IMG/VR virus record: IMGVR_UViG_2526164688_000041
DNA length: 12,518 nucleotides
Strand: one strand, 5' to 3'
DNA from: a virus
Taxonomy: Duplodnaviria > Heunggongvirae > Uroviricota > Caudoviricetes
How positions within the stretch are numbered: position 1 is the first letter of the stretch; the number at the start of each line of letters is the position of its first letter. Below the pieces are notes generated by a model that worked only from the letters and a program-made list of their open reading frames with translations, searched no databases and was not told where the DNA came from. Below are positions 7,512-8,178 of the stretch, one piece after another. The position numbers were made by a program, and so were the translations under genes.

Positions 7512-7559
7512 TTTGCTACTCCTCATCATATCGACCCTGCAAGGTCGGTTGGTTTCTCC

Positions 7560-7648
7560 ACAAAACAGAGAAGAACACCTGCGGTGGCAGCCGCCCGGAT
7601 GGATTGGGTTATGAGCCCGTCGTCCGGTGATGCTCTTCTCTGTTTTGT
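7560..7648 (-). repeat. Long inverted repeat (18-bp arms 7560-7577 / 7631-7648, one G-U) enclosing a 53-nt GC-rich segment with internal short stems; candidate structured leader RNA element
   Basis: Arms ACAAAACAGAGAAGAACA and TGCTCTTCTCTGTTTTGT are reverse complements apart from one wobble. The enclosed segment contains GCGG..CCGC and CCGGA..TCCGG stems. It lies between an intrinsic terminator and the SD of the yfdP-like gene. Confidence 0.45.
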
Positions 7649-7694
7649 AAAAAGAGCGGTACCAGCCGTAAGCAAGTGTACAAACTGGTACCGC
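7645..7694 (-). terminator. Rho-independent terminator on the leftward transcript (10-bp perfect stem, 19-nt loop, UCUUUUU tail)
   Basis: Plus-strand GCGGTACCAG (7656-7665) and CTGGTACCGC (7685-7694) are perfect reverse complements. On the minus-strand RNA the hairpin is followed by UCUUUUUAC (plus 7645-7655). Confidence 0.5.
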
Positions 7695-8117
7695 CAAAGC
7701 AGTGGCTGCTGTGGTGACCGGTGCTGATCTCCGGCTTGCGGTTATTTCAGACTCTCACGGGCGTTTAATTGCCCCGCCGAACAGCTCTTTTCCGCAATAG
7801 CTGCAATGTCTTTCGCGCATCAGCCTGCGCATTCACCACAACGCTGAGAGCACTTAGCCAGTTACGGCACCACACTTTGTCGCGGTTCCATAAATGCCCT
7901 CATCGTTGCACCCTGGTCTCTTCCCAGGCGTCAAACCGAATCGCCACGCTGGTTAGGCGTCTTATCAGCGTCATCATTGACTTGCACATTCCGGCTACCT
8001 GGTTTGTTTGCTCGAGCAAGGAGTGGATTGTCCCCTTTAACGTCACCAGACCGCTAACGACGCATGTGCCATACGCCGTGTTACAACCAAATTTTGTTAG
8101 TACCTTGTTTGTATGTC

Positions 8118-8178
8118 TGGAAAGAAAGATAAAATGAAGTTGCGCATTATGCAAGTGTTTTTATTGCGAGATATGCAA
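8118..8178 (-). promoter_or_regulatory. Candidate pL promoter overlapping two operator dyads (OL): TTGCGCATTATGCAA 8140-8154 and TTGCGAGATATGCAA 8164-8178
   Basis: Two 15-bp TTGC-N7-GCAA dyads sit 24 bp apart. On the minus strand there is a -35 TTGCAT (plus 8149-8154), a 17-bp spacer and a -10 TATCTT (plus 8126-8131). The same dyad recurs at OR. Confidence 0.5.

Follow-up and report, generated by a model that had tools for sequence, protein, structure and literature searches.

The 0.6-kb leader between the early-left promoter (pL) and the first early-left gene of a lambdoid prophage is a modular, non-coding RNA leader and not a lost N gene. It occupies positions 7513-8139, minus strand, of a 12,518-nucleotide stretch of viral DNA (IMG/VR record IMGVR_UViG_2526164688_000041; hereafter the window), and it contains a 97-nt three-way-junction RNA (7552-7648, minus strand) with a copy of the anticodon arm of initiator tRNA. 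An earlier note on this DNA had described a leader poor in open reading frames (ORFs), with a terminator and a long inverted repeat, and had proposed RNA-based antitermination or attenuation, a pL-driven small RNA (sRNA) or a micro-peptide. Three things are new beyond that note: the anticodon-arm copy, paralogues of the junction in P1-type tRNA clusters, and the finding that the leader upstream of the junction is a conserved array of RNA modules. We hold the descriptive core, a conserved non-coding RNA array that includes no N gene and is not a put element of the kind found in phage HK022, with high confidence.

A conserved three-way-junction RNA in the early-left leader

Folding the whole 626-nt leader gave a structure more stable than those of shuffled sequences (z = -4.2). 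The first 220 nt alone did no better than shuffles (z = -0.4), and the 97-nt element at 7552-7648 reached -46.2 kcal/mol (z = -6.4). The inverted repeat at its center, described earlier as having 18-bp arms, is real and longer than claimed, with arms at 7560-7584 and 7624-7648. The element consists of a closing helix, P1 (7629-7648/7560-7579; 18-20 bp, with 98.9% of alignment cells paired); a second helix, P2 (7623-7627/7595-7599), which closes an internal loop (CGAC / AAUCCA); a hairpin of three G-C pairs and a 7-nt loop containing CAU (7606-7618); a variable arm, P3 (7591-7594/7581-7584); and a 3' tail, GGAGAAAC. A Shine-Dalgarno-like GGAG (7556-7559, minus strand) follows P1 at a distance of 1-3 nt and is present as GGAGA in all 65 distinct sequences that we aligned.

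These 65 sequences, taken from related prophages, show that the hairpins are conserved with covariation, the outcome on which the earlier note had staked its RNA reading. Under the junction model 97.5% of cells are paired, versus 41-56% when the 3' partners are slid. Compensatory changes occur at eight pairs (for example C-G/A-U 40:19, G-C/C-G 48:16 and A-U/G-C 43:19); one of the eight, in P2, alternates between G-C and A-U (44:16). No shuffle reached the observed covariation score; this shuffle test is weakened by the kinship of the sequences, a weakness from which the slid-partner control is free. Thermodynamics alone cannot separate the two strands (-46.2 versus -46.1 kcal/mol). In the alignment, however, G.U pairs far outnumber A.C pairs (107 cells versus 13), with a U.G pair at columns 19:98 in 60 of the 65 sequences, and the functional strand is therefore the pL-sense transcript.

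To map the distribution of the element, we scanned for its core, CGACGGGCTCAT-NN-CCC-N-ATCCAYCCGG. The element was found in more than 140 prophage loci across Enterobacterales, with the core in at least 120 IMG/VR stretches and in 16 species-representative genomes, including those of Escherichia, Shigella, Citrobacter, Kosakonia, Enterobacter, Klebsiella, Pseudescherichia, Buttiauxella, Mixta and Erwinia. At least part of it occurs in prophages of about half of complete E. coli genomes, and it is also carried by Shigella serotype-converting phages, Salmonella phage ST64B and Stx2a- and Stx2c-converting phages. Relatives at 85-90% identity (ST64B, 118970_sal3, LLS, Eeyore and Kp4866-6) keep it between cI and the first early-left gene. 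That gene varies between loci (yfdP-like, RdgC-like and others), and the junction therefore serves the operon, not one gene. The scan of representative genomes also listed two records labeled Chryseobacterium sp. (L013) and Geobacteraceae metagenome-assembled genome (L017), each with a typical enterobacterial element and yfdP, probably through contamination or mis-binning.

Covariance model R1 found a single copy of the element in the window and in the complete genomes of mEp460 and ST64B, with no second copy on the pR side of any of the three. No Rfam family matched the leader (7450-8250) in either gathering or E-value mode, and we attribute matches to the hairpin ribozyme (E 6.7) and rydB (E 6.4) to chance. 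Nor did we find a description of the junction in Rfam 15 or in the literature searched. A riboswitch was considered and rejected, as P1 is far too stable to switch (-46 kcal/mol).

The junction is followed closely by two further recurrent features. The 15-mer UGUGGAGAAAC(U/C)AAC occurs twice in the window with 14 of 15 positions identical, at 7548-7562 (minus strand), right after the junction, and at 9808-9822 (plus strand), where it is the ribosome-binding site of ORF 9825 on the pR transcript. Just before the first gene lies a hairpin, CGACC-UUGCAG-GGUCG (7532-7547, minus strand), of a type with a KKGCAG loop that recurs in the interval from GGAGA to the first start codon (54 of 70 distinct sequences, versus 3 of 70 shuffles); the same loop is present in 13 of 56 P3 arms. 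Hairpins with this hexaloop were also observed at 2505-2620 of locus L020 and at 1990-2110 (minus strand) of locus L098, at times two or three consecutively. We rejected pairing of the CAU loop with the start of the first gene, since the two share AUG(AG) alone and the ST64B and RdgC-type loci offer no consistent extension. Pairing of the loop with (A/G)UGG after P1, where both sides are invariant, is possible.

The junction carries a hairpin like the anticodon arm of initiator tRNA

A 14-nt stretch of the junction, CGGGCUCAUAACCC (7606-7619, minus strand), is identical to the anticodon stem-loop of E. coli tRNA-fMet (metY). The metY sequence reads ...GUCGGGCUCAUAACCCGAAG..., and the 14-mer lies in the same register, with three G-C pairs, a 7-nt loop and CAU in the anticodon positions. 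Three consecutive G-C pairs beside the anticodon loop are a hallmark of initiator tRNA and are read by the 30S P site and IF3, and CAU is an identity element for methionyl-tRNA synthetase (MetRS). In local alignment to metY the element scored 15, a value reached by 5 of 3000 dinucleotide shuffles, none of which shared the 14-mer.

The loop differs among relatives (CUCAUAA, CUCAUUA, CUCAUUC, CCCAUAA and UUCAUAA in the element; UUCAUAU and GUCAUAU in paralogues), and CAU and the GGG/CCC helix alone are constant across all variants, which gives the invariant form GGG-NNCAUNN-CCC. The tRNA-fMet reading gains weight because precisely these parts are conserved. The element has the arm of an initiator tRNA (three G-C pairs and a 7-nt CAU loop) and lacks the cloverleaf, with no acceptor stem, D and T arms or CCA end. 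ARAGORN found no tRNA gene in the window, and the Rfam tRNA model likewise had no match.

Paralogues in P1-type tRNA clusters

R1 also detected significant matches elsewhere (E 1e-10 to 5e-8): in RCS47, a P1-like phage, and in P1-like plasmids it found copies on the tRNA strand, beside tRNA-Asn/Thr and tRNA(CAU). The P1-type core, AACGGGNTCATATCCCAATCTAC, is present in 101 IMG/VR stretches, mostly as two copies 279 nt apart. These paralogues share the strand of the tRNA genes in 59 of the 60 loci scanned and, where a locus stretch includes both flanking tRNAs, they lie between tRNA-Thr and tRNA(CAU). In the P1 clusters they are near accessory and anti-defence genes (TerB family, Tad2). Other subfamilies mount the core on different outer stems: GGCCCACU.../...AGGGCC (L150, L154), GAUGCG/CGCAUC (L162) and AACAGGUAAGAGCA.../...UGCUCUUUCCGUU (L158, L176, L177). 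The short-P1 subfamily (L154) had no relative in the phage collection.

In an alignment of the paralogous subfamilies (A2), 26 of 30 pairs show compensatory changes, and GGG/CCC is fixed in all 21 distinct rows; A2 was fitted to the covariance model and hence leans toward it. The superfamily signature is AC-GGG-NNCAU(A/U)N-CCC-AAUC on a helix of free sequence. At the same loci we observed that the RCS47 ORFs "plp" and "upl" (L146 1461-2072; L147 1420-2320) overlap, on the opposite strand, a structured RNA array beside the tRNAs. RefSeq has no gene at their position in P1-like plasmids, and both ORFs may be spurious.

A terminator-like hairpin precedes the junction

The earlier note had placed a strong minus-strand terminator in the leader, and both of its parts are there: the 10-bp arms (7656-7665/7685-7694) are perfect and a U-tract follows. 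The complete feature (7649-7695, minus strand) is an intrinsic-terminator-like, GC-rich hairpin (7655-7695; -23.2 kcal/mol, z = -5.7 versus shuffles) with CUUUUU at 7649-7654 on the transcribed strand. A consensus terminator scan missed this hairpin because its loop exceeds 8 nt.

The arrangement recurs. In a strict test, a hairpin followed by T4-7 lies 0-10 nt before the element in 128 of 142 loci, with a T-run in 140 of the 142, and overall a terminator precedes about 95% of elements, the short-P1 subfamily included. The stems themselves are unrelated among loci (GGCGGUACCAG, GGCGGCAUC, GCCCAUC, CUGGCGG, GUCGGCGUC). Two loci, L098 and L071, are exceptions to the terminator-then-element order; in L098 the element lies about 20 nt past the operator/promoter, directly downstream of the cI gene and its terminator.

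The leader lacks a protein-coding gene

We confirmed the ORF poverty of 7513-8139. The longest minus-strand ATG ORF there has 29 codons (MCKSMM...) and lies within the TTG ORF 7900-8154; the sole other one has 25 codons (7755-7832); and every minus-strand ORF of at least 60 aa starts at TTG. Neither the window nor related complete phages contain an N- or Nun-like gene, as the earlier note had supposed for the leader. A six-frame search of ORFs of at least 20 aa against Pfam and PHROG returned no Arg-rich N-like family, no Pfam family and just two PHROG matches. One, phrog_33599 (E 2e-17), is the 49-aa ORF 7526-7675 (minus strand) that runs across the RNA element, and the other, phrog_3651 (E 8e-86), is the ORF 7323-7727 (plus strand) antisense to yfdP. 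Both look like families of mis-called shadow ORFs, annotated over conserved DNA in some phage records, and RefSeq has no annotated gene beneath the best full-length E. coli matches.

The micro-peptide idea is not supported, since the element does not preserve any reading frame. In 109 distinct homologous stretches, no frame that crosses it has a consistent start or stop; among relatives the frame meets stops at 33 to more than 400 nt, and many lack a start codon. The length of the element also varies by non-multiples of 3 (105, 106, 108, 109, 124, 128, 129, 131 and 132 nt in relatives), a variation that an ORF would not survive. Two candidate leader peptides or upstream ORFs were rejected as conserved features, one (MEK...) beginning at the GUG/AUG past P1 and one beginning in the loop of the terminator; both have no Shine-Dalgarno sequence, have inconsistent stops and are missing in several lineages. 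Separately, we observed that the 25-aa ATG ORF MRRLMRERHCSYCGKELFGGAIKRP (7755-7832, minus strand) has an Arg-rich start and one CxxC and lies inside the multibranch module described below and inside that module's P1-plasmid homologue; it has no Shine-Dalgarno sequence, and its matches to half-zinc-ribbons are weak (E ~0.02-0.05).

The upstream leader is an array of RNA modules

Between the promoter and the terminator, the leader is assembled from pieces that recur elsewhere. The segment at 7978-8092 (minus strand) is 87-89% identical to the sequence that starts 2 nt past tRNA(CAU) in P1-like plasmids. Unit A (7837-7910, minus strand) is a long-stem RNA with a 15-bp closing stem and without the CAU hairpin (-33.7 kcal/mol, z = -3.9); it has a weak R1 match (13.7 bits, E 0.03) and recurs with a different stem sequence in L020, a prophage of another immunity type.

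The multibranch module that follows (7708-7842, minus strand) is closed by GUUGUGGUG/CACCACAGC and has a 5' hairpin, GCGCAGGCUGAUGCGC, and a 3' hairpin, GCCGGAGAUCAGCACCGGU. Each of its 31 distinct versions, from related leaders and P1 arrays, retains the closing stem, with compensatory variants (GUUGUGAUG/CAUCACAAC, GUUGCGGUG/CACCGCAAC), and both hairpins, the 3' one being, for example, CCGGGAGGCACCCGG. The stretch 7707-7843 is 97.8% identical to one that a P1-like plasmid carries about 80 nt past tRNA-Thr. No match to the Rfam C4 or STnc100 models was found for the module in the window (E up to 10) or in five related leaders, and STnc100 (RF02076) gave a sub-threshold match (34.4 versus 47 bits) in an analogous P1-plasmid module. 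We found no support for identity with the published Pas sRNAs, and the neighbours of PasB differ. We also noticed pieces of the module (GUGGUGAAUGC...) at about 80% identity in unannotated stretches of the P22-like phage HK620 (16079-16200) and of SopranoGao and ZCKP8, two Klebsiella phages, which extends the module family beyond lambdoid and P1-like phages.

The earlier note had further suggested that a palindrome, TTGCTCGAGCAA (8008-8019), reuses the operator half-sites. The palindrome exists; it is not above chance and is no operator relic. For TTGC-N4-GCAA 0.61 sites are expected, and 90 of 200 shuffles contain at least one; its N4 spacing differs from that of the 15-bp operators TTGC-N7-GCAA (8140, 8164, 8947); and other sequence replaces it in the homologous P1-plasmid segment. 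We regard it as a chance match and no part of the system.

Genomic context

The window represents the immunity and early part of a lambdoid prophage, one of the SfV / ST64B / mEp460 / cdtI type, and its leader region is 100% identical to that of E. coli O55:H7 strain DEC5D. The cI gene (8234-8926, minus strand) encodes an S24 peptidase with a helix-turn-helix domain, and its transcript would end at a hairpin and U-run past the stop codon (8196-8213, minus strand). Beyond cI lie a Cro-like helix-turn-helix gene (9024-9284) and, after it, a CII-like gene (9277-9828). Two 15-bp operators, TTGC-N7-GCAA, make up OL (8140-8154 and 8164-8178), with a third copy at OR (8947-8961). From the sequence and the operator layout we place a putative pL at 8126-8154 (minus strand), overlapping the operator 8140-8154, with a -35 TTGCAT at 8149-8154, a 17-nt spacer, a -10 TATCTT at 8126-8131 and a start near 8118; the consensus promoter scan gave pL no score.

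The early-left operon opens with a yfdP-like gene, continues with yfdQ (DUF2303) and a nucleotidase-like gene, and ends with xis and int. The first gene, yfdP-like (7149-7529, minus strand; phrog_204), starts at ATG 7511 or at an alternative ATG, 7529. No antiterminator family was found among the early-left ORFs and proteins, and no further strong minus-strand terminator was seen in the operon. The picture is similar in relatives: mEp460 encodes a late regulator of the Q type, with no N annotated, and the curated record of phage Stx2a_1447 leaves a 780-bp gap empty and lists no N.

Several other features of the region caught our attention. Iteron-like repeats (GGTAGTGCAGGAG.T.CAC, at least 3 copies) at 11446-11578 (plus strand), within the O-like replication gene 11188-12027, are probably the origin of replication. 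ORF 9825-10970 matches Ash and Rha in Pfam and is a single "Rha/antirepressor" protein in phage records; within it, 10185-10370 (plus strand) matches the Rfam families isrK (62 bits) and C4 antisense RNA (75 bits), and RNA genes probably make up the 5' third of the ORF. A direct repeat, AAATTCGCACATG.G.AT, flanks C4 on either side (10221-10238 and 10401-10418), and its copies may be C4 target sites. In E. coli K-12, the cryptic prophage CPS-53 has lost cI, pL, the leader and the RNA element, and iteron-like GATTTTGACGGGTCA repeats stand before yfdP in place of the leader (L188 4240-4620). K-12 transcriptomics is uninformative about the leader because of this loss.

Relation to put and nut

The earlier note had raised HK022-type antitermination as a role for the large structure. 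Like put, the junction is a cis-encoded structured RNA in the early leader of an N-less lambdoid phage, and in L098 it lies about 20 nt past the promoter, as putL does in HK022. The differences outweigh this likeness in our assessment. The junction has no sequence or covariance-model similarity to putL or putR, and a search of the HK022 immunity locus (L145) with R1 came up empty. put, which binds the zinc-binding domain of the RNA polymerase beta' subunit and confers terminator read-through, consists of two tandem stem-loops of about 70 nt and is present in two copies (pL and pR), whereas the junction is a three-way structure on a 20-bp helix and is present in one copy (window, mEp460, ST64B). 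Moreover, put precedes terminators, and the junction follows one. This comparison lowers the case for the junction being a put; that it acts on RNA polymerase at all stays alive as a small chance.

The signs of an N/nut system are also absent from the leader, which has no conserved boxA or boxB and no copy on the pR side; no small Arg-rich N protein was found among its six-frame ORFs of at least 20 aa or among the early-left genes. The lambda pL leader (nutL plus the RNase III hairpin of the N leader) shares with it a long helix and an untranslated stretch from pL to the first ribosome-binding site. It differs in having N, boxA and boxB, and it has no counterpart of the invariant internal core of the junction. 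Two candidate boxA/Nus sites were rejected: CGCUCUUUUUACAA (7646-7659), after the terminator stem, is replaced by ACCUUUUUACAC, CCCUUUUUACGC and others in relatives, and UGCUCUU lies in the 3' arm of P1, where it is base-paired and covarying.

A model for the leader and its alternatives

We propose that the leader is attenuated and that its junction binds a host factor. Once cI leaves OL, pL would transcribe about 470 nt of folded, untranslated RNA, comprising unit A and the C4/STnc100-like multibranch domain, and most transcripts would probably end at the terminator (7649-7695). Termination there would yield a leader RNA or sRNA whose 3' end is a hairpin with oligoU and would limit transcription into the yfdP...xis-int operon, which would suit the attenuation or pL-driven small RNA put forward in the earlier note. 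A read-through early-left mRNA would start with the 97-nt junction, followed by GGAG and the KKGCAG-loop hairpin before the first start codon. The junction would then act after transcription, not as an N/put-type antiterminator, by binding a host component that reads the initiator anticodon arm. Candidate binders are the 30S P site with IF3, or MetRS; a tRNA-directed nuclease and RNA polymerase are further candidate readers of the hairpin. The 20-bp P1 helix may be an RNase III processing site, and the junction would determine how efficiently the early-left message, including xis and int, is translated or how stable it is. We infer the termination efficiency, the processing and the binding partner, and we put the mechanism as a whole at a little short of an even chance.

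Several observations weigh against this model. The Smith-Waterman p value for the match to metY, ~0.002 per tRNA, becomes modest once all (~40) tRNA species are allowed for, which leaves the tRNA-fMet identity suggestive rather than overwhelming. The loop differs at positions 33 and 37 (CCCAUAA, CUCAUUC), where a true anticodon loop does not usually vary. One P1 unit has a canonical T-loop hairpin (GGGUUCGAAUCCC) at the equivalent place, and the CAU hairpin could stem from a T-arm and resemble an anticodon arm only; by the same token, the family looks tRNA-derived. The terminator loop is large (15-19 nt), a size that usually weakens termination, and the model does not explain why a terminator stands so regularly directly before the element. 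Finally, the position of the element in L098, about 20 nt past the promoter like putL, would suit an action on RNA polymerase.

That last point also speaks for a different role, in which the junction is a new put-like RNA that, as nascent RNA, makes RNA polymerase resistant to downstream and Rho-dependent termination and so replaces N. Left unprotected, an untranslated RNA of some 600 nt would be exposed to Rho; the phages lack N; the element precedes whichever gene comes first; and its invariance across many genera would be expected if it bound a conserved host machine. A 2025 study of phage LLS likewise suggested a put-like mechanism and identified no element (PMC12315714). Set against this are the different architecture and the lack of similarity to putL and putR; the position of the element after, not before, the leader's only strong terminator in about 95% of loci; the single copy in mEp460 and ST64B, with none downstream of pR; the paralogues in P1-like tRNA operons, where an antiterminator has no obvious role; and an early-left operon in which no further strong minus-strand terminator was seen. 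We think such a replacement of N quite unlikely. Action in trans is a further option that we consider unlikely though worth keeping in mind: the junction would be excised via its long helix and, as a mimic of the initiator-tRNA anticodon arm, would serve as a decoy or inhibitor for a tRNA-fMet-targeting factor (VapC-type or another defence) or in host take-over. Phage tRNAs counter tRNA-cleaving defences and enteric VapC cleaves initiator tRNA, both of which we count for this option, as we do the exact identity of the hairpin, the invariance of GGG/CCC and CAU while the other helices drift, the paralogues in phage tRNA clusters beside TerB-family and Tad2 genes, and an outer helix that matches RNase III substrates in size (about 20 bp). 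Yet positions 37-38, beside the known VapC cut site, vary; the element always lies directly upstream of the Shine-Dalgarno-like GGAG and a gene, which suggests a role in cis; and no tRNA-fMet-targeting defence is known to restrict these phages.

The long hairpin might also be nothing but an RNase III processing or insulator site that separates the leader RNA from the early-left mRNA, with the tRNA-like core as a relic. P1, at 18-20 pairs, has the length at which RNase III cuts (about 20 bp or more), and it is a nearly perfect 20-bp helix just upstream of the first ribosome-binding site of the pL operon, its sequence free and its structure kept. The RNase III site of the lambda N leader has the same relative position, the units in P1-like operons lie between tRNAs and mRNAs, and in the metY-nusA-infB operon an RNase III hairpin follows metY. 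Processing alone leaves unexplained some 30 nucleotides of the internal loops and hairpin that are invariant across genera (CGAC, GGGCUCAU, CCC, AAUCCA) and an invariant core kept on completely different outer stems, and we judge it improbable as the whole account. A small protein or N-like peptide is very improbable. The candidates are the 49-aa ORF 7526-7675, the 25-aa ORF (MRRLMRERHCSYCGK..., 7755-7832) and the 122-aa plus-strand ORF 7769-8137. The phrog_33599 match, the annotation of ORFs here in some phage records and, in some relatives, a Shine-Dalgarno-like sequence and start codon in the terminator loop in frame with the 49-aa ORF all favor a peptide; they are opposed by stops at inconsistent distances, by variation of P3 in non-multiples of 3, by substitutions that compensate for RNA pairing, and by the lack of a Pfam match, a RefSeq gene or an Arg-rich N-like family. 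We give least credence of all to the inverted repeat acting as DNA, be it as a cruciform or as a protein-binding or recombination site. A single sequence does fold equally well on both strands, but the wobble asymmetry between strands, the asymmetric internal loops and variable arm conserved as features of an RNA, and the confinement of the paralogues to the tRNA strand (59 of 60 loci) all count against it.

Discussion

The attenuated leader with a host-factor-binding junction that we propose has partial parallels among known systems. In the thrS operator, too, a hairpin mimicking an anticodon arm lies immediately 5' of the Shine-Dalgarno sequence within the leader of an mRNA. That operator is bound by ThrRS, whereas the junction copies tRNA-fMet/Met (CAU) and precedes unrelated genes of a phage operon; by analogy, it might be bound by MetRS. 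YrlA (a bacterial Y RNA) and the stable RNAs of the T4 tRNA cluster share with the junction family a long closing helix, a tRNA-derived module and neighbouring tRNA genes in phages. YrlA mimics the T/D/acceptor part of a tRNA, whereas the junction family copies the anticodon hairpin, and the YrlA model had no match in the leader, its sole weak match lying over real tRNAs. In the dicBF operon of the Qin prophage, a pL-type promoter drives the processed sRNA DicF. The leader resembles dicBF in its repressor-controlled early-left-type promoter, whose long transcript would yield non-coding RNA before or among genes (10.1101/2023.04.14.536235). The RNAs are unrelated, and DicF is flanked by genes, unlike the gene-free leader here, after which comes a tRNA-like junction.

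For the module at 7708-7842, the closest known counterparts are C4 of P1/P7 and STnc100/PasD, which share its design of a closing stem, UGGUG...CACCA, around several hairpins; STnc100 and PasD are related prophage sRNAs (10.64898/2026.05.13.724894). The module is homologous to the spacers of P1-type tRNA regions, and a bona fide C4 with isrK is present on the pR side of the window. It differs from C4 (RF01695) and STnc100 (RF02076) in falling below the Rfam thresholds, and the three-way junction is found in neither family. The analysis also flags several database artefacts, in which RNA elements have been annotated as ORFs and gathered into PHROG families.

How lambdoid phages that lack N pass through their early operons is an acknowledged open question (PMC12315714), and it now has a bounded, testable RNA supported by covariation. 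The anticodon hairpin copy and its sisters in P1 tRNA clusters point to a link between phage regulatory RNA and tRNA or translation initiation of which we found no description. Tentatively, and with more doubt than belief, we suggest that the junction founds a new class of phage RNA, with a copied initiator anticodon hairpin at its core and a sister form in P1-like tRNA operons. It may dock the small ribosomal subunit or an initiator-tRNA-reading factor in cis on the first early message, or it may be an N-independent modifier of transcription or translation, unrelated to put, in a very large group of lambdoid prophages, including those encoding Stx2a and Stx2c. Standing before xis and int, the leader and its terminator probably gate prophage excision and early gene dosage.

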